DNA from: a virus
UHGV virus genome: UHGV-1384413
Strand: one strand, 5' to 3'
DNA length: 64,000 nucleotides
The notes below the pieces were generated by a model that was given only the letters and a program-made list of their open reading frames with translations, searched no databases and had not been told where the DNA came from. Positions 40,486 to 54,053 of the stretch are shown here, one piece after another. The first letter of the stretch is position 1; each line of letters begins with the position of its first letter. Made by a program: the position numbers and the translations under genes.

Positions 40486-40905
40486 ATGAACATTAAATCT
40501 GATAATCCGGCATATAGCTTTGATAACGCTTTTTGTCACGGTCCGGCGGCGAAAGGATTCGAAATCGATGGTAAACTAATTATTGTCAATGTTGACGGGG
40601 AAGAGGTTGCAGTATATCCGGTGGCAGACGTTAAAAGCCGTCTACAATGCCGCATCGATGTTACCGCCTACCAGCTTGATCCGGTCCGGGTAGTTGCCCT
40701 GGTCCTGGAAGAAGAAATTAAAGCAATGCACCACAGCAACAAGTTTATTGGTGACGCTCAAGATAATATGCAGGTATGCCGCTATAAAGTTAATGAAGTG
40801 CTTAAAGAGTACGGCTATAAGGATTTAATGATCAAGCGTGATGAAAAATTCCGCTACCGTAACGACCTGGCAAATCGGATTTTTGAAATATACGAATCAT
40901 TATAA
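40486..40905 (+). CDS. hypothetical protein (139 aa); last gene of plus-strand block
   Basis: ORF with AGAGGTAA RBS; followed by strong terminator. Confidence 0.55.
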   Translation: MNIKSDNPAYSFDNAFCHGPAAKGFEIDGKLIIVNVDGEEVAVYPVADVKSRLQCRIDVTAYQLDPVRVVALVLEEEIKAMHHSNKFIGDAQDNMQVCRYKVNEVLKEYGYKDLMIKRDEKFRYRNDLANRIFEIYESL

Positions 40906-40923
40906 TTTCTTAACTGAATTATC

Positions 40924-40950
40924 AAGGGGCTTAAAGGCCCCTTTCTTTTT
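40924..40950 (+). terminator. intrinsic terminator closing the plus-strand block
   Basis: AAGGGGC-ttaaag-GCCCCTT hairpin plus TCTTTTT; approximate coordinates. Confidence 0.6.
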
Positions 40951-41539
40951 GTCTGCTCTTCTCCTACCATAAACGGCCCTACCTGGCAAGTGGAATAATT
41001 GACTAGCCATCAATCCCACACACTGTATAAATATACATGGAAAATAACTATTGCATAATTTTTCATTGTGTGGTAGCAAGGCCATTTTTACCCGTTTTCT
41101 CTCCCAAAATTGCACGTAATGCCGCTATTGCACAAAATTTAACCTGATGCACATCTTCAACATCTTGTCAATAACTAAAAATCTTTATAAGTCATACACT
41201 TACACAACCATAAAGCCGTGTTCTACGTGAAAAATCGAGTATAACTATAGCCGCCAGATCTCAGAATTTACGTACGTTCACCATTCTATAGCCTGCAAAG
41301 TATTTATTCCAACCACAGAATAACGGAATAGTCAATACCTGCATAAAATAATTATTCGTGTAAACTGCATAACATAAATCAGCTCAGGTGTCAACATTTT
41401 TCGTAAGCAGTTCGAAATTGTCACGATAAGTTATTATACACAAAGAAATCTTTAGTCGTCTAATGGTTACTATACATTACTAATCTGACTGGAATCATTA
41501 GATGACTAAGAGAAAGATAAGAAATAATTAATAATGTAA

Positions 41540-41850
41540 TTGTTTTACCTGTAACAATAAGGCAACTATGCAAACGAATGGCATGGCGCGACGGAGTCGC
41601 GACATAATATAAAAGCAGTAACCATCACCCCCGTGATAGTTTTTCTGCAATCTATTACTCAGATCATAGTTGCCTTGTATTTAGTTAATCATGACATAAC
41701 AAGCAAGGCAACTATAGATCTTCTAATAGTTGCCCTGCTTTTATATTATGTCATAGAAACGCCCGAAGGGGTGACCTAGTCACCTGGCATAGCCAGCGAA
41801 AGATTATTATCTTGTTAATTGTTTTCATGCAAACGAATGTCATGGCTTAT
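41540..41850. repeat. iteron / inverted-repeat cluster (candidate origin or regulatory hub)
   Basis: 9-mer GGCAACTAT in alternating orientation near 41560, 41667, 41707, 41726; 18-bp perfect inverted repeat GACATAATATAAAAGCAG near 41601 and 41735; flanking direct repeats ATGCAAACGAATG(G/T)CATGGC near 41568 and 41826; small palindromes GCGACggaGTCGC, GGTGACctaGTCACC. Confidence 0.6.
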
Positions 41851-42596
41851 CATCTATGCGTGAACTATCCAGGCGTAAACAGTCTATGCGGGAACAATCT
41901 ATACGGGAACAGTGAGGCATGCAATAGTAACAACTGTTATTGTATCCGGTGTGTTGAGTATGCCCGGTGTGTCACTATTATGTCACATTATGTCAGACAA
42001 GTTTTTCTCCTCTTTGTCAAGTGCTGCATGAAAAATTTACAAACTGGTATGGTAGCATTTTTGCGGCCCTGTTTACATTCAGAAATGTATGTATAATCCT
42101 TGGTGTGTGGGCGTTTAGACGTCTGGACGGTCAGAAGTCCGCAGGTCAATATCTAATCTATTGGTTGCTAACTATATCCCACACAAATAGTAAGAAATAT
42201 AATTGTTATGTGCGTAAACAGTAACCCATGTTATCAATCCCTGTATGTATCGCCAGTGGTGCGCATAATGGGTATTATGTTAAATTGCCCGTAATGATAA
42301 CTATTCTCACAATGATAGGTATTCTCATTCATCCCCACAAGATAGATTGCAAATGTTGTGCCACTGTGTGAACGGCCTGGTCTATTAATTTGCCTCACTG
42401 CCTCGATATTTGAGAATTATTATAAAAATGAGAAGTATTCCCATTCCGTCCGCCTGGCAGCACTCCTGTAGGACAAGCACAAAATCGGGGCATAACTGAC
42501 CTGTTCAGATATTTCTGGCTGACTCTTCAGGTCTGTGTGGGAAAAGCCAACCTCTCCGGCGGCGGGGTAGGGGTCAATTAAAAAATTTATGCGGTG

Positions 42597-42652
42597 TATG
42601 AAACCCTCTTCAGGCAAGGTGTGTATTATGGTATGAAACCCTCTTCAGGCAA
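42597..42652. repeat. two perfect 21-bp direct repeats
   Basis: TATGAAACCCTCTTCAGGCAA twice, 35 bp apart; related CTCTTCAGG and CGGCGGGGTAGGGGT motifs recur nearby; approximate coordinates. Confidence 0.55.
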
Positions 42653-43411
42653 TGATATTTGTGGGTGTGATATTTGCTGGAAAGCCAGATATGACGGGAC
42701 TCCCGGCGGGGCAGGGGTAGTACAGACAGGGAAAATGTGGGGATGTAGTTGGGGAAATTGATCAGACAGGTAGAGTATGGAATATGTTATGAATATGTTA
42801 AATATGGAGGGTGAATATCTGTAGGATTTGTGTGTAAAATCAAAGACTTAAGTGGTGTTGTGGTATTTTCTATAAATAATTCAAGTTTAATAGGTAATAT
42901 TTGTCTCTATCCACTTTGTGTGGTAAACAGATTTAGATGAAATTGGTTTACAAGTGTATACATAATATACAAATTAAAGATACAAGAAACCCCCCTCCCC
43001 CTTCGGCTACCATTCACCTTTTCCTCTGACTGGTACTTAAACACTTATTCAGACTCTTCAGGTTATCACCCATATACTATATGGCAGTGACTGGTGTCCT
43101 CCGGCCCCTCTTTCGTCACCCGTCCGCTTCGCCAAGCTAATGCCATAGCCAAATGTTCGGTTGTTCACCCTGTTCACTCAGGTGTATCTCCATACCCCTT
43201 CAAACCGAAGAGAACAGAAAACCCGAATTACTCGGTAAAAGAAAAGAGAAGAACTTAATTTTATCAAGATAGGCAAGAATGTCAAGGGATGACTGCTCAC
43301 TAAACAAGCAAACAGTCATGTGTGGTAGGTAAGTGATTGTAGTGGTGGAAAATTTAGTTGAAAGATGTGTTATAGTGCTCCCAGCACTTTAGCCGGGCAG
43401 CTAATTGTGTG

Positions 43412-44319: not shown

Positions 44320-44631
44320 CTATACCCATGAGGGCTTGTCCAGGTTGGAGTAACTGAAAGGGGTCAAAAGGTGACTGTCAAAATCTTTCAAACTGTCCAG
44401 ATCTTTTTCCTCGTCCTGACACCATCTGTGTCTACATTTATTGTTGTAGTGCATGGAATGCATAGCGTTCTGCAACTTAATAGGCACAAGTGATTCAGGA
44501 GTAGATAGAATTGTTGGGTATGCCAGGACTATCTCAAACAATGGAAACACATCGAAACTGAAGTCTATTTCTGCTGAGGTTGCTGGCATATAGGAGTATT
44601 TAGCTGTCGTTGTAGACATAATCCACCTCAC
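44320..44631 (-). CDS. hypothetical protein (103 aa)
   Basis: ORF, 4-nt overlap with upstream gene. Confidence 0.5.
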   Translation of the reverse strand: MRWIMSTTTAKYSYMPATSAEIDFSFDVFPLFEIVLAYPTILSTPESLVPIKLQNAMHSMHYNNKCRHRWCQDEEKDLDSLKDFDSHLLTPFSYSNLDKPSWV

Positions 44632-45755: not shown

Positions 45756-46019
45756 TCATTTATCTTTGCCGTCAAGAACTTTTTTAAATCTCTCAGGAAT
45801 ATCTCCTGTTCTTAGATAGTTCATGACCTCACAAGGTTCCCACTTAAACTTCTTACACAGCAGGGCGGCTGAGATTGTCTCATTGCGAAAAGAAAGGATA
45901 TCAATATCCCACTCTGAGAACCCTAATTTCCGAAGAGTGGCTATAGAAATCCTCACAGCAACCCAACAAGAGAGGCACGCAACAAACGCTACTGCTACAA
46001 CCCACACCAAGATGTTCAT
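45756..46019 (-). CDS. predicted membrane protein (87 aa)
   Basis: N-terminal hydrophobic helix; AAGGGGG RBS. Confidence 0.5.
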   Translation of the reverse strand: MNILVWVVAVAFVACLSCWVAVRISIATLRKLGFSEWDIDILSFRNETISAALLCKKFKWEPCEVMNYLRTGDIPERFKKVLDGKDK

Positions 46020-46108: not shown

Positions 46109-46396
46109 TCATAGCGTCTCTAAAATTTCATACCCTTCGGGTCGGAAAACAAGCCACTCAGGTGCTCCATTTGGTCGATACGCTTTATACAGAACAACCT
46201 GATCTCGGCACATACACATTGCTACATAGTTTTCATCCACACCTGCAGCCTGCATTGCATCTTCTTCTCCGGCAACCGCTTTGCTTACAACTTCCTTGGT
46301 AGGCAGGTGGGCGATCAGCTCGTCACCATCGTTAATTCCAAAATGGCTGAGTTCTCCATTGGTGTCTTTAATCTTGATCTTAACCAAATCTTTCAT
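46109..46396 (-). CDS. hypothetical protein (95 aa), small-paralog cluster
   Basis: ORF abutting neighbour; MK..VKIKIKD N-terminus. Confidence 0.5.
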   Translation of the reverse strand: MKDLVKIKIKDTNGELSHFGINDGDELIAHLPTKEVVSKAVAGEEDAMQAAGVDENYVAMCMCRDQVVLYKAYRPNGAPEWLVFRPEGYEILETL

Positions 46397-46725
46397 TAGT
46401 CTTCCCCCAAGTTCAAAGGTCCTAAGATCTCATATGCCAGATTAGAAGTTACCAGAGGATCTTCTGCATCTTTAGTATTATACCACCCGTGAATAACCAG
46501 AGTCCCACTTTGCTTCATGTCTAACTGGAACTGTTCTGCCGTTTCCTCATCCATCTCCAAGATCTCCATGAGGTATTTGATGTTAGGAAGGTATGCAGCT
46601 GTTACAGTCCCCTCTACTAGGCCTTCAGGCCAACCTACATCCGGATGACAAGTAGGGACCAGAGAGGTCAGCTTGATAGTGTATGCTTTTTCTGCACGAG
46701 CCTTCAGTAACGGATCAATTTTCAT
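46396..46725 (-). CDS. hypothetical protein (109 aa)
   Basis: ORF, 1-nt overlaps both sides. Confidence 0.5.
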   Translation of the reverse strand: MKIDPLLKARAEKAYTIKLTSLVPTCHPDVGWPEGLVEGTVTAAYLPNIKYLMEILEMDEETAEQFQLDMKQSGTLVIHGWYNTKDAEDPLVTSNLAYEILGPLNLGED

Positions 46726-47075
46726 TATTCTTCCTCCTCTTCGGTGCCTGCTTCCAGTAGTAAGTTAAGAACATCTTCAGCAGAAGGTTCGTAGAACTCT
46801 TGGCCTTCGTTGTCGATGATACGATAGTCATCACCACGAATAATCAGAGGATCGTTATCAAAACCTTCAAGACCTTTAACAACGACAACACGGTCGATTG
46901 CCATCATTGTAAGAACTTTATCAACATCTTCCTCTGCCACACCATACTGCAGCAGGATGTCTTTGGTAGGAGGAACAGCATCAACCACAACACCGTTACC
47001 AAAACCTTCCGGAAGTTTAGCTAAAATATCTTCCGGAACCGCATTCATATCAAAACCTGTGATCTCTACTTTCAT
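46725..47075 (-). CDS. hypothetical acidic protein (116 aa), small-paralog cluster
   Basis: MKVEITG N-terminus, poly-Glu C-terminus. Confidence 0.5.
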   Translation of the reverse strand: MKVEITGFDMNAVPEDILAKLPEGFGNGVVVDAVPPTKDILLQYGVAEEDVDKVLTMMAIDRVVVVKGLEGFDNDPLIIRGDDYRIIDNEGQEFYEPSAEDVLNLLLEAGTEEEEE

Positions 47076-47336
47076 TTACAGCACCTCTTCGTCAACTACT
47101 TCATAAAAATGGCTTGGGATTGCAATGGCGTTCTCGCCTTCACCTAAGAACACTGTCCCACTAACGATTAACATTAGAAGAACGTCTGCGATACCTTCCT
47201 CGGGTACGTTGCCAAAACCTTTAATCAGCTCGTAGGTTGGAAGATTTACCTCTAAGATGTCACCATCCTTAGAACGGAAATCAACACCGTCCTGAATCTC
47301 TGCCGTTTCAAGGTTTTTCAATTTAATCTTCATCAA
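47076..47336 (-). CDS. hypothetical protein (86 aa), paralog family B
   Basis: MKIKL N-terminus and C-terminal G.GE..I..P..YEVVDEE shared with 48500..48769. Confidence 0.5.
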   Translation of the reverse strand: MMKIKLKNLETAEIQDGVDFRSKDGDILEVNLPTYELIKGFGNVPEEGIADVLLMLIVSGTVFLGEGENAIAIPSHFYEVVDEEVL

Positions 47337-47412
47337 TCAGTCTCCTGTCTTGTTAAGATGGAGGTATTATTGCACACAGGGTTGGTGTTGTCAACACCTG
47401 TGTGGCATAAAA

Positions 47413-47808
47413 TTACTGAAATAGTGCAGATAAATTACCTTCTGGTGGGAACTTATCTGCCAGGAATGGGGTTAGAACAGTGGCCTTCTGAATATCAGGG
47501 GTCCACTCATTGTTCAGAACATCCCAGTAGTACGCAATGTTACTGTGTGGGTGCCGCATTACGAACTTTTTCCCTTCGTAGTCAGTTGAAACCTCTACAG
47601 AAGAAATAACAACAGAGTCTTCAAGGGTTTCTTCATAGAAAGATCCACCCTCAAATTTCCAACGAGATGCAAGAGCTCCTGCCTTGAACGCTGCAGATAA
47701 CGGACTGTCTGCAAGAACATACATTTCTTGCACTCTGTCACTGCGATCTTTGCTTCTTACATTGTATACAGTATCCGAGCTATACTCAACACGGTATAGA
47801 CTTACCAT
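47413..47808 (-). CDS. hypothetical protein (131 aa), paralog family C
   Basis: HPHSNIAYYWD...EWTP motif shared with 49615..50013. Confidence 0.5.
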   Translation of the reverse strand: MVSLYRVEYSSDTVYNVRSKDRSDRVQEMYVLADSPLSAAFKAGALASRWKFEGGSFYEETLEDSVVISSVEVSTDYEGKKFVMRHPHSNIAYYWDVLNNEWTPDIQKATVLTPFLADKFPPEGNLSALFQ

Positions 47809-48140
47809 TACCTAACCTCCTCAATAACTTCCACATCTGAACCCACCACAAATGCAAAAGGGCAGGTTTCATGAAAGATATCCGGATCTCCACCAAGCTT
47901 GCTAACTATCTCTCCACCACTAATAAACACAAGCTCACCAATATTCATCAGATTGCTAAAATAGTAGCCATAATGATTGAAGAATGCAGCTGGGTCAGGT
48001 AGACTGGTGGCCTCAAGCTCTACATTGCTTGAGATCACTTTCTTATCATACCCTCTCGCCTTTTGAGATGCAAGATCTGCAGAGTCTTCAGGAGACCGGA
48101 GATGCACAGGAATTGTTTCACCAATAAAGCGTACTTTCAT
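47808..48140 (-). CDS. hypothetical protein, paralog family A-like
   Basis: Start at ATG (M6 of track ORF, which begins TTG) with GGGGTGAGA RBS; C-terminal FVVGSDVEVIEEV. Confidence 0.45.
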   Translation of the reverse strand: MKVRFIGETIPVHLRSPEDSADLASQKARGYDKKVISSNVELEATSLPDPAAFFNHYGYYFSNLMNIGELVFISGGEIVSKLGGDPDIFHETCPFAFVVGSDVEVIEEVR

Positions 48141-48144
48141 ATTC

Positions 48145-48408
48145 TCACCCCACAATCATAGCTTCAAAAGGTGTCATAAACGAATAAACAGCATCATCAT
48201 CTGCTTCAGGGAATGCCCCCAAAGACTTTATGTCTGATCCCTTGACAAATACAAGGTTTTGATCAAAAGCTTCTTGGGGATCAATCCGATACATATCTCG
48301 TAGGATATTGCTTACCTCCTCATCAAGAGGTGAGTATGCTGTGCACGTTTTTCCAATCAAGCTTTGAGAATCAGGGTATCCACCTGAAGTTTTAAAATAA
48401 ACAATCAT
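48145..48408 (-). CDS. hypothetical protein (87 aa), paralog family A-like
   Basis: VFVKGSDIKSLGAF motif; GAGGTGA RBS. Confidence 0.5.
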   Translation of the reverse strand: MIVYFKTSGGYPDSQSLIGKTCTAYSPLDEEVSNILRDMYRIDPQEAFDQNLVFVKGSDIKSLGAFPEADDDAVYSFMTPFEAMIVG

Positions 48409-48499
48409 ATAGTATCACCTCTGGCAAGAGATGGGGATTCCTTTCCCACAAATAATTACAAACCTTCCTTATCGAGGAAGCATGCTAATCCAAGCAGGA

Positions 48500-48769
48500 T
48501 TATTCCTCTACAATCTCATACACATCAGGAGTTACAATCAACTCTTCTCCGTTACCCGGTGCAACAAACACCACCAAGCCTTCAGGTGTGTGCTTTTTAG
48601 CCATCTCGATAACATCTTCTCGCAGAGCTGGCTCCATCAGATCAAAGCCTTCACCCAGGGCATCACGAACCACCTTCATATAGTCCACTGGTTGTGCTTC
48701 AACAATCATGCCTTCAACCAGTCCACAGTTTTTGTCTGCCAGCTCAGTTTTGAATAATTTAATTTTCAT
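48500..48769 (-). CDS. hypothetical protein (89 aa), paralog family B
   Basis: MKIKLFK N-terminus; C-terminal LIVTPDVYEIVEE; GAGGAG RBS. Confidence 0.5.
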   Translation of the reverse strand: MKIKLFKTELADKNCGLVEGMIVEAQPVDYMKVVRDALGEGFDLMEPALREDVIEMAKKHTPEGLVVFVAPGNGEELIVTPDVYEIVEE

Positions 48770-48906
48770 TTAGAGGTCTCCTCAATTATTTGATATTAAT
48801 AGCCGTAACCTAACACATTAACTACAACTACGATTGCAAACATAATTTCAAAGCATGCAATCTCTACATTTGGGACTAATTTCTTAATCATACCCATTGT
48901 AGCACC

Positions 48907-49224
48907 TCATTCTCCAAAGTCAATCTTTACTTTGCCTTTCCCCTTACCTTTCTTTCCACCACATTTAGCCAACTGACGTGCTGCAACATCTACCATACGG
49001 TCAGTTGCCTCGTAAGCATCACTGCCTTTAGCTTTGGCAATAACTTCTTTTCCGGAAGTGTCAAAAATGAACGCCATAACTTCCTGGTGATCATTTTCAA
49101 CTTTTACACTCACACGTGCATAGTTGGCAGAGGGGTGCAAACGCTCCAGCTTAGACATTTTGTGGGAAATGAAAGACACCATACCTTCAGTGATTTCTAC
49201 GTTGCCAGTGATTTCAATTTGCAT
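48907..49224 (-). CDS. ribosome hibernation factor homolog (HPF/RaiA, S30AE family)
   Basis: 105 aa; MQIEITGNVEITEGM...KLERL...VSVKVEN and ...ARQLAK collinear with E. coli HPF as I recall it (MQLNITGNNVEITEAL...KLEQY...VLKVEK...LARQLTK); Lys/Gly-rich C-terminal tail. Confidence 0.65.
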   Translation of the reverse strand: MQIEITGNVEITEGMVSFISHKMSKLERLHPSANYARVSVKVENDHQEVMAFIFDTSGKEVIAKAKGSDAYEATDRMVDVAARQLAKCGGKKGKGKGKVKIDFGE

Positions 49225-49306
49225 AACGTGTTCCTTTTAAAGAAGAGGGAACCAAACCCTCTTTGAAAACAATGATACTAAATCTGAAGCGTTGTGTCAA
49301 CAGTTT

Positions 49307-49597
49307 TTACAGCTTGTCGTCGATAGTTTTTAAAATATCCACAGCAAGATCTGCCATTTTTCGAACATACTCTGCAAACTCAACAGGATCCTTGATCAAA
49401 GAATTCACAGGGTCGTACCCTAGAGCGTTCAAAATGGCTGCAGCATCTACAACCTTCTCATCATTTGCGAAGATCTCTCCATCAAACTTGTAGGTCCATT
49501 TTGAGTCAATCTTGGCAGAGAAGGATTGGTCAACGCTTGTTACACCATCCTTTTTAAACTCTCCAGTGTTATCAGTGTCCAGAACTAAATCCATCAT
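49307..49597 (-). CDS. hypothetical protein (96 aa)
   Basis: ORF with GTGAGGT RBS. Confidence 0.5.
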   Translation of the reverse strand: MMDLVLDTDNTGEFKKDGVTSVDQSFSAKIDSKWTYKFDGEIFANDEKVVDAAAILNALGYDPVNSLIKDPVEFAEYVRKMADLAVDILKTIDDKL

Positions 49598-49614
49598 GTT
49601 AGTACCTCACTGTT

Positions 49615-50013
49615 TCAGTCTAGCTTTTCTTCAACAACCCCATAACTTGGGGCAGAGTCAAGAGCTTTCTGGTTTAAAAGTGGCGTAGCAGAATCTGCAA
49701 ACGGTGTCCAAGTTTTTGTTCTGGCATTCCAGTAATGCTTCACTCTGGAATCTGGATGCACTATAACAAAAACTTTTTCACTTGTCAACACATTAATTTC
49801 TTCTACACCCTTGCTGATAATTTCTCCGTCATAGCCACCAGTCTGGTATCCTTCGTACCAGGTTCTTGCATATGCATAGCCAGCCTGCCAGCATGCAGCC
49901 TCCTCCGAGGTGGAGACTACGTAGAAGTCTTTCTCAAATTCTGGGATACGCCCTTGCTTTACGCTCCAAGACCCGCGAATTTTCATTGTAACTTTGAACA
50001 GTTTATTTTTCAC
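49615..50013 (-). CDS. hypothetical protein (132 aa), paralog family C
   Basis: HPDSRVKHYWN...TWTP motif shared with 47413..47808. Confidence 0.5.
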   Translation of the reverse strand: MKNKLFKVTMKIRGSWSVKQGRIPEFEKDFYVVSTSEEAACWQAGYAYARTWYEGYQTGGYDGEIISKGVEEINVLTSEKVFVIVHPDSRVKHYWNARTKTWTPFADSATPLLNQKALDSAPSYGVVEEKLD

Positions 50014-50025
50014 AACGGTTACCCC

Positions 50026-50280
50026 TCACAGCTCTACAATCTCTGCATCTGACCCTGCCCCAAAGGCATAATAGGATTCTTCCCCGAAATAATATTCCGG
50101 TGCACCAGCAGCGATCAGGTCTGATCCCAAGATAAACACCACGTTGTGGCCTACATAACTGTGATGTTGCCGCACAGGATCATCCCACGGCAACCCTTCA
50201 AAGTATACCGCAGGAACGACCTTTCCATTCAGGAAGGATTGTCCCAAGTAGACGTTAGAATCAAGAATTTTAACCTTCAT
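50026..50280 (-). CDS. hypothetical protein (84 aa), paralog family A
   Basis: MKVKILDSNVYLGQ ... SDLIAAGAPEYYF ... AEIVEL. Confidence 0.55.
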   Translation of the reverse strand: MKVKILDSNVYLGQSFLNGKVVPAVYFEGLPWDDPVRQHHSYVGHNVVFILGSDLIAAGAPEYYFGEESYYAFGAGSDAEIVEL

Positions 50281-50497
50281 TCTCGTCCTCCACTATCTCT
50301 ACATCCTCACCAAGGGCAAAGTTGTAGGTCCACTGACTGTCAAAGCAGTCCTGAGATGCACCAGCGGCAATAAGATCTGCACCTTTTATTTTTAAAAGGT
50401 CAGGATAATCTTCGTTAGGGATAGCGGTAAACACTTTCCCCACTAAGGGCTCCTGACCAATATAGAAGCTTGAATCTAAAACTTTAACTTTCATCAA
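50270..50497 (-). CDS. hypothetical protein (75 aa), paralog family A
   Basis: MMKVKVLDSSFYIGQ ... ADLIAAGASQDCF ... VEIVEDE. Confidence 0.55.
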   Translation of the reverse strand: MMKVKVLDSSFYIGQEPLVGKVFTAIPNEDYPDLLKIKGADLIAAGASQDCFDSQWTYNFALGEDVEIVEDENEG

Positions 50498-50778
50498 CGG
50501 TCTCCCTCAGGCGGTTGTGGAACGTAAACACTGTTACGAATCTCGTCAGCAGTGTAGTAACAAGTTTTCCCCTCTCTGCCCCTGGCAGCAATGTATTCAG
50601 CTATACCAATAAGTGCCATAGCCTTGGTGGCGTATCTCTTAAGCTCGTTAGCTCCCCAGCAAAATCTCTGCCAAAACGGTATGAAACCGAATAGGTACAC
50701 CTTCTGTTTCACTATCCAATAAGTTCCTTTACAGATCACTTTAAACTCTGCAGCACTATTGCTAACACCATTGCTCAT
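50494..50778 (-). CDS. hypothetical protein (94 aa)
   Basis: ORF, 4-nt overlap with downstream gene. Confidence 0.5.
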   Translation of the reverse strand: MSNGVSNSAAEFKVICKGTYWIVKQKVYLFGFIPFWQRFCWGANELKRYATKAMALIGIAEYIAARGREGKTCYYTADEIRNSVYVPQPPEGDR

Positions 50779-50790
50779 TATCTTCTCCTT

Positions 50791-51075
50791 TTATTTTTCT
50801 GGGTTTGGCAGATATTGCACATTGGCAGGAGGAACACCGGATAGCTCCCAAACAACCATAGTGCTGTACCCTGGCACACTTCTAACATTTAAAAGAGTAG
50901 GAGCACCAACACATTTAAACTTCCTTTTCCCAAATCCGTTCTCCATCATAACCCAGTATCCGGTATCCTGATCACCGGGAATTTGTGTTCCATCATCGTC
51001 CACCCAGCGGACGGTCCATTTCGATACAGCAACGGCTCGGTATTTAAACTTTTTAAACCACTCAAACAGTTTCAT
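50791..51075 (-). CDS. hypothetical protein
   Basis: Start moved to internal ATG (M13 of track ORF) to reduce overlap. Confidence 0.45.
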   Translation of the reverse strand: MKLFEWFKKFKYRAVAVSKWTVRWVDDDGTQIPGDQDTGYWVMMENGFGKRKFKCVGAPTLLNVRSVPGYSTMVVWELSGVPPANVQYLPNPEK

Positions 51076-51259
51076 CTTCAGCCTCGCTTGGCAGCCCTTC
51101 CATTTTGACATACCGGAAAGTGTTGCCGTAATAGTTGATCCATGACATCAGCTCACTTTCTTGCTCTTCCTCTGGGATGGACTCTCTAACGCTGACAAGT
51201 TTTAAGAAAACCCAATCACAATCCACCCCCATCCTACCAGACAGACAATAGTGCTTCAT
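51062..51259 (-). CDS. hypothetical protein (65 aa)
   Basis: ORF in operon. Confidence 0.4.
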   Translation of the reverse strand: MKHYCLSGRMGVDCDWVFLKLVSVRESIPEEEQESELMSWINYYGNTFRYVKMEGLPSEAEDETV

Positions 51260-51277
51260 AAAACCCTCCCGCCTGGT

Positions 51278-51472
51278 TTAGAATATTGCTTCTTCCATTG
51301 CACCTGAGAGCAACAAAGAGGTAATCTGGCTAACATTCATCTCAGACTCCACTTCCTCTCCTTTGAAAGGTTCGCGGCAGAATAGGACTGTTTCAGGATT
51401 TTTACTTCGAACAATATAATACAAATCATTCAAAGTGTTGTAGTAATAAGTGTTAAAATGTAAGTTTTTCAT
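51278..51472 (-). CDS. hypothetical protein (64 aa)
   Basis: ORF, 4-nt overlap with upstream gene. Confidence 0.45.
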   Translation of the reverse strand: MKNLHFNTYYYNTLNDLYYIVRSKNPETVLFCREPFKGEEVESEMNVSQITSLLLSGAMEEAIF

Positions 51473-51756
51473 TTTCTAGTCCCCTTTTTAGATTTTTGTG
51501 CAGAAACGCTTTCTGCAATACGAGACAGGCGTTCTTCTGAAGCTTTACCTACCCCAGGTTTCTTGAGCGGGTTATCTTTATGACCGCAATCCAATTGGAT
51601 GCTAGATACATCCCCAACCTTGTAAGTCAATTCTAGCAAAAGGTTGTCGTCCTTGTCAAATGTTTTTACGATAAATTTTTTATCGTCCTCCTTAACTTCA
51701 TATCTAGTACCTGCAGTATACAGCATGGTGCCATCAGCGTAGGATATCCAGATCAT
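51469..51756 (-). CDS. hypothetical protein (95 aa)
   Basis: ORF, 4-nt overlaps both sides. Confidence 0.5.
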   Translation of the reverse strand: MIWISYADGTMLYTAGTRYEVKEDDKKFIVKTFDKDDNLLLELTYKVGDVSSIQLDCGHKDNPLKKPGVGKASEERLSRIAESVSAQKSKKGTRK

Positions 51757-52100
51757 TGCACCTCCTTCTGCTGCAACAGCATCAACTCTTTGTTGGAAAT
51801 CTTTACTGCTGTCTTTATTGTCCCATCTTCACGGAACCACGACCAGAATTCTACAGTATCACCACTATCAAGCAAGGCATGACCATGGTAAAAATCTTTG
51901 TCCTTAGACAGTTTCTCATCTATATCTGCATCGACACATTCGTGATCCATAGCATTCTGCCTGAATGCATCGGTTATGCCAATGCACGCCTTACTCTCAA
52001 GGCTGGTATACCCAATATCTTTTAATTCAGTTTCCCAAGTCCAGTATCCTACAAAAGCTACAACAGCCACCCACATTAATATAGATTTAATCTTTGACAT
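51753..52100 (-). CDS. predicted membrane-anchored protein (115 aa)
   Basis: N-terminal hydrophobic segment ILMWVAVVAFVGYW. Confidence 0.5.
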   Translation of the reverse strand: MSKIKSILMWVAVVAFVGYWTWETELKDIGYTSLESKACIGITDAFRQNAMDHECVDADIDEKLSKDKDFYHGHALLDSGDTVEFWSWFREDGTIKTAVKISNKELMLLQQKEVQ

Positions 52101-52160
52101 TCTCTCTACCTCTTTCTTAGTTTATTTAGTTATGGCACATCCTTTGTGCCATAATGCACA

Positions 52161-52622
52161 TTACTTAAACAACAGTTCAAAATAGTGCAAAATTAACAGA
52201 AGTTGAATTACGCCTAGCACAACTGCAAGTATGTTGATCTTAGAATCAAAAAACTTCTTAACTTTTACCCTAAAAGGCTCCTTAATGTCCTTTACGATCC
52301 TATTTATAGATGATTTCATATCCCTGATTACCATCCTAAACATTAGAGACGGATCTTCCTTCTCTGTAACGGAATCGAAAACATACTCTCTTCGGTCATA
52401 AGGACCTCCAGATCTGCGTATTAACCTCTCCACAGATACCTCGTACGACACACCTGTAACGTAATCATCTATGACAAGTAGTGACGGGTCTTTATCGTCC
52501 AAAGGTATCAAAGTTATCTTTCCAGATTTTGTTAAAATTTCTCCTTTTTCAAGCAGTGTGTACCAATGCTCTCTACCAAGGTTGTTGAGGCACGTTTTTA
52601 CATATTTAACAAACATCGTCAC
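52161..52622 (-). CDS. predicted C-terminally membrane-anchored protein (153 aa)
   Basis: C-terminal hydrophobic segment ILAVVLGVIQLLLIL. Confidence 0.5.
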   Translation of the reverse strand: MTMFVKYVKTCLNNLGREHWYTLLEKGEILTKSGKITLIPLDDKDPSLLVIDDYVTGVSYEVSVERLIRRSGGPYDRREYVFDSVTEKEDPSLMFRMVIRDMKSSINRIVKDIKEPFRVKVKKFFDSKINILAVVLGVIQLLLILHYFELLFK

Positions 52623-52822
52623 CCCTCATCGCACGTCTGATATAGCCATTCTATGAAATCTTGATACCACTCTCCCTCTGAGCGCTCCGTAGGCCAATAA
52701 TCTTCCCCCTCTCTTGCATTAAAATCTGAGTATTCAACTTTCCACTCCTTTACCAGCTCGTGGAGAAGGTTTTCAGCCTGTTCTAAGGATTTATTTTTTG
52801 TCATTACTGTCCCCTTTTTCAA
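52619..52822 (-). CDS. hypothetical protein (67 aa)
   Basis: ORF, 4-nt overlap with downstream gene. Confidence 0.45.
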   Translation of the reverse strand: MKKGTVMTKNKSLEQAENLLHELVKEWKVEYSDFNAREGEDYWPTERSEGEWYQDFIEWLYQTCDEG

Positions 52823-53039
52823 GATAATTATACATCAGCGCCGCGCCACCTAAAATGGCTACCAGCAGTAATACCCCAGAGAGCATTTCAATAAACATGG
52901 CTTGAAACATTAGAAGGCCCCCTAATTTCACGCACCATTTTAAATACATATTCTTTTCCCATAAAGGTGCCCGGCTAAGATCTGCGTAGAATGCAATCTC
53001 TTTAAGAACAGTATAAACAGTTTTAGGTGCGGTATCCAT
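52791..53039 (-). CDS. predicted membrane protein
   Basis: Start moved to internal ATG (M16 of track ORF); hydrophobic helix. Confidence 0.45.
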   Translation of the reverse strand: MDTAPKTVYTVLKEIAFYADLSRAPLWEKNMYLKWCVKLGGLLMFQAMFIEMLSGVLLLVAILGGAALMYNYLEKGDSNDKK

Positions 53040-53259
53040 CCCTACTCTCCTTTTTCCCCTTACGGATATTCTTGTGGTAATCAACTAGGCACATTATTAC
53101 GATGAAGATAACAACAGGCCAAAAGGGCGCAGCAGTGATGATGGTGATAAAATCATCAAACTTCACCCTTCGTGTAGACACGATGCATATACCTGCCAAG
53201 ATTACTGCTGTTAGAACAGCTACTACCAGGTAACCTATCAGCACAGCATCTATACTCAT
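53023..53259 (-). CDS. predicted membrane protein (78 aa, two TM helices)
   Basis: Two long hydrophobic stretches. Confidence 0.5.
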   Translation of the reverse strand: MSIDAVLIGYLVVAVLTAVILAGICIVSTRRVKFDDFITIITAAPFWPVVIFIVIMCLVDYHKNIRKGKKESRDGYRT

Positions 53260-53277
53260 TGGCTCCTCCTTTGTAGG

Positions 53278-53823
53278 TTAAATTGTACACTGCAGGTGGT
53301 TGCCGAGGGTGTCAAGAAAATTATCCCGTTCTTTCTCAGAGTTTTCATGGGTGTAGCTGAAAAACATATCTAGAATAACCTTATTGATATATTCCAGCTC
53401 CTCTGTGTTCAGGTACTTAGCAGGATCTACAATGACATCCCAAATATCATACAAACCGCACTCATGATACCCCCAACGCCGCTCAATTGTCAAACTGAGC
53501 GGCAAATCTTTACCATCACAAACAACCTTCCATCTGCAGATGTTGGTATCTGGACGTACCTGTGTACGGTATACCTGTACAAAATCCAATTTGAATTGGA
53601 GGTACTCGTCATACAATTTAAGTACAAAACTCTCGATTTGTGGAGATACTTTTGCAGCAAACTGTGCGTATTTGTACTTGCACTGGATGATCTTTCTGCG
53701 TTTTGCAGTTAAATTTTTTGCAGCCAGTTGTTCTTCAGTGTACCTCCACCTACGATCAACAAACGCAACAGGGTCTTTGTCCCCATAGAGGTCTTCCCAG
53801 TTAATCAGAAGCATACCTGCCAC
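53278..53823 (-). CDS. hypothetical protein (181 aa)
   Basis: ORF in operon; several Cys/His. Confidence 0.5.
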   Translation of the reverse strand: MAGMLLINWEDLYGDKDPVAFVDRRWRYTEEQLAAKNLTAKRRKIIQCKYKYAQFAAKVSPQIESFVLKLYDEYLQFKLDFVQVYRTQVRPDTNICRWKVVCDGKDLPLSLTIERRWGYHECGLYDIWDVIVDPAKYLNTEELEYINKVILDMFFSYTHENSEKERDNFLDTLGNHLQCTI

Positions 53824-54053
53824 TCCTCCACAACTTCAAGGCCTTTGCCGCCTCGTTCTGGTAGATTACTTAAAGACAGGTAATACGTATAGTCAGGAGA
53901 GATCCTGCCAGACTCTGCACCTGCAGCTAGTAAATCTTTTCCCTTAACCATGACAACATTATCGTTTGCAGATAGCCGTTTTGCTTCCACAATTTTACCA
54001 ACGCAGTCAACCAAGGAAGGGTACCCTAAATCTGTAAGAAATTTAACTTTCAT
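53805..54053 (-). CDS. hypothetical protein (82 aa), paralog family A
   Basis: MKVKFLTDLGYPSL ... KDLLAAGAESG. Confidence 0.55.
   Translation of the reverse strand: MKVKFLTDLGYPSLVDCVGKIVEAKRLSANDNVVMVKGKDLLAAGAESGRISPDYTYYLSLSNLPERGGKGLEVVEEWQVCF

Follow-up and report, generated by a model that had tools for sequence, protein, structure and literature searches.

Three families of small paralogous genes and a repeated three-gene module in the minus-strand block of an rV5-like phage

What does a run of small, unannotated genes contribute to a large lytic phage, and are such genes copies of one another? The question is raised by positions 46109-54053 of UHGV virus genome UHGV-1384413, of which a stretch of 64,000 nucleotides, called here the window, was analysed. 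About 70% of the genes of large lytic phages are without known function, and rV5-like phages are common therapy candidates. A first inspection of the letters, referred to below as the sequence-only reading, had proposed at least eight small paralogous genes on the minus strand, regarded as one expanded family under diversifying selection and as candidates for host takeover or anti-defence. All genes that it listed were present on the minus strand, with coordinates correct. The paralogy held and was extended to twelve genes; the single family was replaced by three, A, B and C, with no link between them at sequence level in profile comparisons. Judged from their sequences, the twelve genes are true paralogues that arose by local duplication. 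Twelve 'hypothetical proteins' are thereby reduced to three families and one repeated module, A-A-C, with confident fold models for two of the families, and a link is made to an existing, unexploited genetic result, by which one of the modules is needed only in a clinical isolate.

The window belongs to a Vequintavirus, an rV5-like phage of Escherichia coli, and is 97% identical to phage NHEP1; the 8.1-kb region holding the small genes shows 92-97% identity to about 120 Vequintavirus genomes of about 136 kb. The genes are part of a long block on the minus strand, located downstream of genes for PhoH-like and ClpP-like proteins and for an adenine methyltransferase, and nearly all genes of this block are labelled 'hypothetical protein' in the GenBank records of relatives. 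In the literature on rV5-like phages neither specific transcriptome data nor an earlier description of these paralogues was found.

Three families and a repeated module

Paralogy was assessed over the 33 translated minus-strand genes at 44.6-55.6 kb, in all 528 pairs, by Smith-Waterman scores against 300 shuffles for each pair and by hhalign on orthologue alignments. All twelve genes described here are on the minus strand, and each is given with its label.

Family A has exactly five members in the window. Two of them open the first module, at 50270-50494 (gene 50497; 74 amino acids) and 50026-50280 (gene 50280; 84 amino acids, with an 11-nt overlap with the upstream A gene), and a third, at 53805-54053 (gene 54053; 82 amino acids here and 77 in most relatives), stands isolated about 3.3 kb upstream of the remaining A genes. 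The other two open the second module, at 48145-48408 (gene 48408; 87 amino acids, with an insertion between strands 2 and 3) and 47808-48140 (gene 48155; 110 amino acids, the N-terminal half diverged and the C-terminal half conserved). The Smith-Waterman p values were 5e-15 for 50280/50497, 1.5e-9 for 50497/54053, 1e-6 for 48155/50280, 1.4e-6 for 48155/50497, 3e-6 for 50280/54053 and 8e-5 for 48408/50280. Full-length matches to the hidden Markov model (HMM) of phrog_5009 were given by 50497 (E=4e-37), 54053 (E=3e-36) and 50280 (E=4e-32); 48408 matched it at only E=1.5e-4, and 48155 went to phrog_13661 instead. The comparison of 54053 with the A5 profile by hhalign gave P=1.2e-24. Both diverged genes were recovered by a 68-sequence A profile (P=1.2e-13 for 48408 and 3.7e-11 for 48155), with no further protein of the block below 0.01, so that the family keeps the three core and two diverged members that the sequence-only reading had assigned to it.

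The distribution of family A extends well beyond this genus. An exhaustive HMMER search of 1.84 billion representatives gave 78 clusters at E<=1e-3, mostly stand-alone proteins of 63-90 amino acids, with the consensus MKVKLLNDGGYxGMExVxGKVVxA...IxGxELIxAGA...YxF..G.E.EVVEE. Tandem copies occur in unrelated phages, three in contig L028 (1214-1926) and two each in L005, L024 and L027; two- and three-domain repeats occur within single proteins (P0100, P0101, P0132, P0151), and in P0131 the A sequence is fused to a DUF3310 domain. These tandems and fusions make multiplication of the small A protein a recurrent theme outside the genus. In lambdoid prophages of E. coli, the Q antiterminator and the lysis cassette flank the small accessory genes among which family A is found; ten further viral contigs have family A in regions that are early or accessory, in some cases beside recombination and methyltransferase genes.

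In two independent samples (contigs L017 and L018, both at 2501-2713, equivalent to window 50026-50494) the adjacent A genes are replaced by a single 70-amino-acid chimera. Its N-terminal half is of the 50497 type and its C-terminal half of the 50280 type, and the two meet in the DLIAAGA motif that both types have: a natural loss of copy number through recombination of tandem paralogues. One database protein combines a prophage-type N-terminal half with the C-terminal half of 50497.

Family C is a pair of larger proteins, each the third gene of a module: 49615-50013 in the first (gene 50013; 132 amino acids from a GTG start, 123 as annotated in relatives) and 47413-47808 in the second (gene 47808; 131 amino acids, overlapping the upstream A gene by 1 nt). 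The pairing had been seen in the sequence-only reading and is significant by Smith-Waterman (p=1e-9) and hhalign (P=1.3e-11); both proteins are full-length members of phrog_7379 (47808 at E=6e-66, 50013 at E=2e-73, 131/131 profile positions). In a search of 5.8 billion proteins, relatives of C and of B were confined to Vequintavirus-type sequences, and a search of IMG/VR, made with C, likewise returned only Vequintavirus-type contigs.

The case of family B is more indirect. Its members are 48500-48769 (gene 48769; 89 amino acids), which lies downstream of a ribosome hibernation factor (HPF) gene and upstream of the second module, and a tandem array of four: 47076-47333 (gene 47336; 85 amino acids), 46725-47075 (gene 47075; 116 amino acids, net charge -21), 46396-46725 (gene 46725; 109 amino acids, the most diverged member) and, last, 46109-46396 (gene 46396; 95 amino acids). 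As single sequences no pair of B members was significant after correction for multiple tests (best p about 1e-3). Among 2370 six-frame open reading frames (ORFs) the best non-self match of each member's HMM was another B member, and an iterative HMM search from 47336 collected 47075, 46396 and 48769; the HMM of 46725 built without orthologues from contig L009 reached only E=0.03-0.2. L009 is a 128-kb metagenomic contig of a divergent relative, in which the B orthologues have 28-58% identity. With its orthologues included, hhalign gave P=6e-7 over 83 columns for 47075/47336 and P=4.8e-6 over 70 columns for 46725/47075. The profile of 47336, 47075 and 46725 then matched 48769 at P=7.9e-6 and 46396 at P=8.8e-6, the next best protein being at 0.045; with one further B member added, the four-member profile matched 48769 at P=3e-6 over 80 columns, and the profile of 47336, 47075, 46725 and 48769 matched 46396 at P=2.3e-7 over 82 columns. 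The matches supported by L009 establish family B as five members, where the sequence-only reading had named 47076-47333, 48500-48769 and, probably, 46725-47075. Among the checks that it had named, significance of pairwise alignments was obtained for A and C, and for B significance was reached only by profiles that include L009.

Two GenBank labels touch this family. The orthologue of 48769 is called 'sigma 54 modulation factor' in several records and that of 47336 'non-specific endonuclease' in one (contig L016, 2498-2767 and 1077-1334); neither label was supported by any profile search, both proteins being family B. For 48769 there was no Pfam match, PF02482 (Ribosomal_S30AE) included, and hhalign showed no significant similarity to the genuine HPF gene. 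The latter, at 48907-49224 on the minus strand between the two A-A-C modules, encodes an HPF/RaiA homologue (phrog_8990, E=2e-6; PF02482 on the L009 orthologue).

In the order of transcription the block reads A (54053), eleven other genes, A A C (50497, 50280, 50013), one further gene, HPF, B (48769), A A C (48408, 48155, 47808) and B B B B (47336, 47075, 46725, 46396). When the order is randomised, two A-A-C triplets turn up in about 4 of 10,000 cases (permutation P about 4e-4, for a pattern that was spotted post hoc). Moreover, the position-matched A genes are mutual best matches between the modules, with hhalign values of 3.3e-8 for 48155/50280 and 2.4e-6 for 48408/50497. The repeated order suggests an old segmental duplication. 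In the most economical history, an A-A-C(-B) module would have been duplicated and B then amplified in tandem, the copies being kept by purifying selection.

The age and stability of the set can be judged from relatives. In L009 the gene order is unchanged and every A and B gene, five of each, is represented, together with one C gene, so that 11/12 genes have 1:1 orthologues, of 28-75% protein identity; the orthologue of 50013 is absent, and its slot holds an unrelated 96-amino-acid gene, which was considered as a degenerate C copy and rejected on comparison. The ratio of nonsynonymous to synonymous substitution rates (dN/dS), measured against two relatives, was 0.01-0.25 for every computable member, which indicates purifying selection and rejects positive selection at the whole-gene level. 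The comparison of copy number across related phages, which the sequence-only reading had called for, agrees with a stable figure for A: a tblastn search with 50497 found an equal number of matching places in nearly all of about 118 genomes. The one gene missing in L009 is a C gene. No additional paralogues were found in the whole window or in Seunavirus and Mydovirus relatives. Purifying selection and retention in a distant relative mark the expansion as old and stable, not as the ongoing tandem diversification under selection that had been supposed, of which no signal was obtained.

The PHROGs database already holds part of this picture. The window proteins match its catalogued families end to end (E 1e-32 to 1e-74), which means that the core A trio (phrog_5009) and the C pair (phrog_7379) are already grouped there; the other members fall in phrog_13920, 13661, 11868, 12359, 12155, 12457 and 12794, and all are listed as 'unknown function'. 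It differs from the present result in keeping 48408, 48155 and all five B proteins as single-gene families, and the five-member A and B families and the repeated A-A-C layout are unrecorded in it.

Predicted folds

The A alignment gave an AlphaFold2 model of the 50497 protein with a predicted local distance difference test (pLDDT) score of 93.3 and a predicted template modelling (pTM) score of 0.81, with strands at 2-5, 21-26, 33-37, 56-61 and 65-69 and a short helix over the DLIAAGA motif. Family A, found in many unrelated phages and prophages and often in tandem, is thus predicted to be a compact five-strand SH3-like barrel. For B the joint alignment of all five groups, with 47336 as the modelled protein, gave pLDDT 89.4, strands at 2-5, 26-30, 61-63, 70-72 and 77-79 and two helices at 34-58; the model describes an SH3-like barrel in which strand 2 is followed by two inserted helices, and family B was seen only within this genus of phages. 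A Foldseek search of BFVD yielded nothing but small phage proteins (T4-like, T1-like, Vibrio and Klebsiella phages), all of them uncharacterised, at template modelling (TM) scores up to 0.84-0.88.

The family members are small, soluble, cytoplasmic proteins, and no membrane segments were found in any of the three families. All A and B proteins have an isoelectric point (pI) of 4.0-4.7 and a net charge of -7 to -21, with the exception of 54053 (pI 5.3, net -1); the C proteins also stand outside the strong acidity. Such acidity of A and B fits protein binding better than nucleic-acid binding. Compared with known SH3-like barrels (Spt5/NusG KOW, PsaE, eukaryotic SH3 and the C-terminal domain of retroviral integrase), there is no sequence or Pfam match, and the window proteins are acidic, not basic; A has an added helix and long loop beyond strand 3, and B has two helices added beyond strand 2. 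Pfam gave no match at E<=0.1 to any A or B member, SH3 and KOW included, apart from one chance LRAT match below the cut-off, and profile searches of PDB sequences gave no meaningful match for any family. The resemblance, as read from the models, is one of fold only and implies no common function.

It may be asked whether A and B, ten genes together, go back to a common SH3-like barrel so old that their sequences no longer show it; the expansion would then consist of one superfamily and the C pair. Each of the two models is a barrel of five strands, the first carrying MK(V/I)K and the last (E)(I/V)VE, and many of the same PDB chains are matched by both (7ud6_A, 9eyc_A, 2cre_A, 1w6x_A, 2akl_A, 4tse_B, 7tpb_A); the insertion in 48408 and 48155 is located where the B helices sit, and A members are the top-ranked non-B matches of the five-member B profile (P=0.008-0.04). 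All profile comparisons were, however, non-significant, whether made with 5-sequence profiles, the 68-sequence A profile or the five-member B profile. The second halves differ, A continuing from strand 3 into its helix and long loop and B ending in strand 4, a 3-10 turn and strand 5; the common ends come partly from preferred start codons and embedded ribosome-binding sites, and SH3-like barrels are among the commonest small folds, hence a shared fold class is weak evidence of common ancestry. A common origin of A and B is therefore regarded as doubtful, and they are treated here as two families.

A strain-specific requirement and its interpretation

Genetic data are available for the sister phage Bas54 (phage MaxBurger, MZ501093), in which a saturated transposon library was made in the HIDEN-SEQ preprint (10.1101/2025.11.20.689424); the essentiality and CFE311 data were read from supplement file 9 of that preprint. 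Its orthologues of the 12 window proteins have 88-99% identity: for A, bas54_0166 (54053), bas54_0159 (50497), bas54_0158 (50280), bas54_0152 (48408) and bas54_0151 (48155); for C, bas54_0157 (50013) and bas54_0150 (47808); for B, bas54_0153 (48769), bas54_0149 (47336), bas54_0148 (47075), bas54_0147 (46725) and bas54_0146 (46396). Those of the second module, bas54_0152/0151/0150, are 95-98% identical to 48408/48155/47808. In K-12, 9/12 orthologues are classed 'Non-essential' and 3/12 'Intermediate' (bas54_0151, 0152 and 0153; saturation 0.69-0.73) (10.1101/2025.11.20.689424), and none of the 12 is accordingly required for growth on this laboratory strain.

The comparison of K-12 with the uropathogenic E. 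coli isolate CFE311 gave a different picture for one module. Mean counts fell from 142 to 0 for bas54_0152 (log2 fold change -7.16), from 71 to 0 for bas54_0151 (-6.17) and from 108 to 0 for bas54_0150 (-6.77), with q=0 in each case; bas54_0157, the C gene of the other module, was depleted about 4-fold (-2.14, q=0), the change in bas54_0153 (-2.78) was not significant, and the remaining three A and four B orthologues were unchanged (10.1101/2025.11.20.689424). The orthologue of the HPF gene is non-essential in K-12 and unchanged in CFE311 (10.1101/2025.11.20.689424). In the same supplement file, sheets S6/S7, the sheet 'resampling_K-12_vs_CFE303' has the command line of sample 311 and the same final rows as the CFE311 sheet.

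The setting of the block, the dispensability in K-12 and the strain-specific need for one module fit a role in anti-defence or host takeover, as had been proposed from the sequence; that proposal gains from the loss of A-A-C insertions in CFE311 and loses from the eight genes without significant depletion. We put at roughly 0.55 the probability that the twelve genes are strain-specific accessory or counter-defence factors acting by protein binding. The module 48408-48155-47808 would work as a unit to overcome a strain-specific barrier of CFE311, for which a defence system or an exclusion function encoded by a prophage is the likeliest candidate. The small acidic barrels would most probably act by binding a host protein stoichiometrically, and the other A-A-C module, like the B array, would consist of divergent copies that differ in specificity. 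We infer protein binding, the joint action of A, A and C in one complex, and what kind of barrier is involved. The tandem occurrence of family A in unrelated phages, its presence in lambdoid accessory regions and the position of a validated anti-DS-28 gene, bas54_0140, in the same block were counted in favour of the proposal.

Several points weigh against it. As many as 8/12 genes have no significant phenotype in CFE311, and the CFE311 result is a supplementary table of a preprint, without follow-up by its authors, the genes being unmentioned in the text of the paper (10.1101/2025.11.20.689424). The CFE303 sheet appears to hold the CFE311 run, which leaves one clinical strain readable. Insertions in the A genes could be polar on C through translational coupling, given the 1-nt overlap of 48155/47808 and the 4-nt gap of 48408/48155; the transposon carries no terminator, and widespread polarity is argued against by the authors (10.1101/2025.11.20.689424), while insertions in bas54_0158/0159, just upstream of 0157, were undepleted, which argues against strong polarity at that paralogous locus. 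Conditional essentiality could also reflect host physiology and not immunity. No homologue of known function was found in Pfam, NCBIfam, PADLOC, PHROGs, PDB or BFVD, and early timing of expression is read solely from promoter-like matches. Finally, the Vequintavirinae are reported to be exceptionally sensitive to restriction-modification systems (BASEL paper, PMC8594841), so that a broad anti-restriction activity is unlikely.

The closest comparison is within the same genus. Two genes, bas54_0140 and bas54_0063, act against the predicted system DS-28 of CFE311, and the requirement for bas54_0140 was validated (10.1101/2025.11.20.689424). The orthologue of bas54_0140 lies in the same minus-strand block, at 44320-44619 (minus strand; 99 amino acids, 92% identity), about 1.5 kb downstream of the family genes; searches of Pfam, NCBIfam and PADLOC with its protein gave no match, and the protein is related to none of the three families. 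It resembles the family members in being small, unannotated and dispensable in K-12, and it is depleted in CFE311 like the A-A-C operon in the same data set; it differs from that operon in its sequence and in that its target system was found by cloning.

Among better-known phages, the T4 internal proteins IPI-III, the Alt/ModA/ModB paralogues and the anti-CRISPR operons are locally duplicated and dispensable, and where studied their diverged copies have different host targets. Those sets have known activities and often a rapid turnover between close relatives, whereas here the copy number is nearly fixed over about 118 genomes under purifying selection. An operon of the Acr-Aca type was not recognised, since no gene with a helix-turn-helix (HTH) domain adjoins the A, B or C genes in the window; two A genes are followed by an HTH_3 gene in one unrelated contig (L005), and this arrangement was not seen in ten other loci, by inspection only. 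The finding is a better-defined example of a familiar type of phage gene block.

A more specific form of the proposal may be put forward tentatively, with the odds against it: the A-A-C operon 48408-48155-47808 would be a three-protein counter-defence unit against an immune system of CFE311, the second module and the B array would be specificity variants within an inhibitor repertoire of small acidic SH3-like barrels, and family A would be a widespread, so far unrecognised anti-defence class. If family A is inhibitory, some 78 sequence clusters in other phages and prophages gain a function; if it is not, the region is an ordinary old and stable gene duplication in a phage accessory block.

Alternatively, the genes could be general host-takeover factors that retune core machinery (transcription, translation, nucleoid) alongside the phage ribosome hibernation factor. 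The position of the HPF homologue between the modules would agree with this, as would the 'intermediate' and not fully non-essential status of bas54_0151-0153 in K-12. The strong acidity of the proteins is, however, unlike that of RNA- or ribosome-binding KOW domains, to which, as to SH3, Pfam shows no match, and the strong phenotype separates CFE311 from K-12, yet core machinery is conserved among E. coli strains; this explanation is considered unlikely. Competition between phages, that is superinfection exclusion or interference with resident prophages or satellites in place of immune evasion, is very unlikely: the places of family A in lambdoid prophages, between Q and lysis genes and early-left, are typical of exclusion genes and CFE311, a clinical isolate, probably has prophages, but exclusion genes are not normally needed for the carrier's own growth, insertions were lost here in lytic growth on CFE311, and the proteins lack the membrane segments looked for.

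Gene junctions and other parts of the block

The junctions between genes bear both on expression and on how the terminal signatures are to be read. Of the 1- and 4-nt overlaps reported in the sequence-only reading, those of 1 nt do join neighbouring family genes; those of 4 nt in this block lie between genes outside the families. The acidic C-terminal codons of many genes (EE, VEE, EEEEE; 46396-54053) double as the Shine-Dalgarno GAGG/GGAGG of the next, translationally coupled gene, and MK(V/I)K starts are also found in unrelated neighbour proteins. The start and end signatures that had been named for the families were observed, but would not by themselves prove homology; they are partly translation signals, and the family calls rest on full-length profile statistics. 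That family B is merely an illusion of acidity, MK(I/V)K starts and end codons constrained by the next gene's ribosome-binding site, in keeping with its non-significant single-sequence pairs, its separate PHROG for each member and its EE/VEE codons over GAGG/GGAGG motifs, is most improbable in view of full-length profile alignments of 63-83 columns at P=2e-7 to 9e-6 with the next protein four orders off, HMMs whose top non-self match among all ORFs is always a B member, and the confident folding of the joint alignment by AlphaFold2.

Ten sigma-70-like promoter sites with at least 10/12 consensus matches were found on the coding strand and none on the other. A near-consensus site at 47366-47394 on the minus strand (TTGACA, 17 nt, TG-n-AATAAT with an extended -10) precedes the four-gene B array. 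The genes are probably transcribed by host RNA polymerase from promoters of this type, and their expression may be early, as such matches would predict.

Between the isolated A gene and the first module, Bas54 lacks six genes, about 1.9 kb, corresponding to window 50791-52622, between the orthologues of 50778 and 52822 (contig L012, 14666-14754); this absence shows that this part of the block varies by insertion and deletion within the genus. Two otherwise unrelated small proteins of the minus strand, 45756-46019 and 51753-52100, have a similar N-terminal hydrophobic segment (ILVWVVAVAFV and ILMWVAVVAFV; hhalign P=8e-4 over 13 residues), and both are probably membrane-anchored.

Farther downstream, positions 40900-43400 form about 2.5 kb between converging plus- and minus-strand gene blocks, with no annotated gene in relatives and with a G+C of 0.39, the minimum of the window. 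No Rfam match was found in it. Short repeats are clustered there: copies of an iteron-like ATAGTTGCC(T/C)TG unit, some direct and some inverted, lie at 41552-41752, and a 22-nt sequence is repeated perfectly, in direct orientation, at 42596 and 42631. The equivalent region of Bas54 received zero transposon insertions (HIDEN-SEQ preprint, 10.1101/2025.11.20.689424), and the segment may act in cis as an essential element, for instance as an origin of replication.

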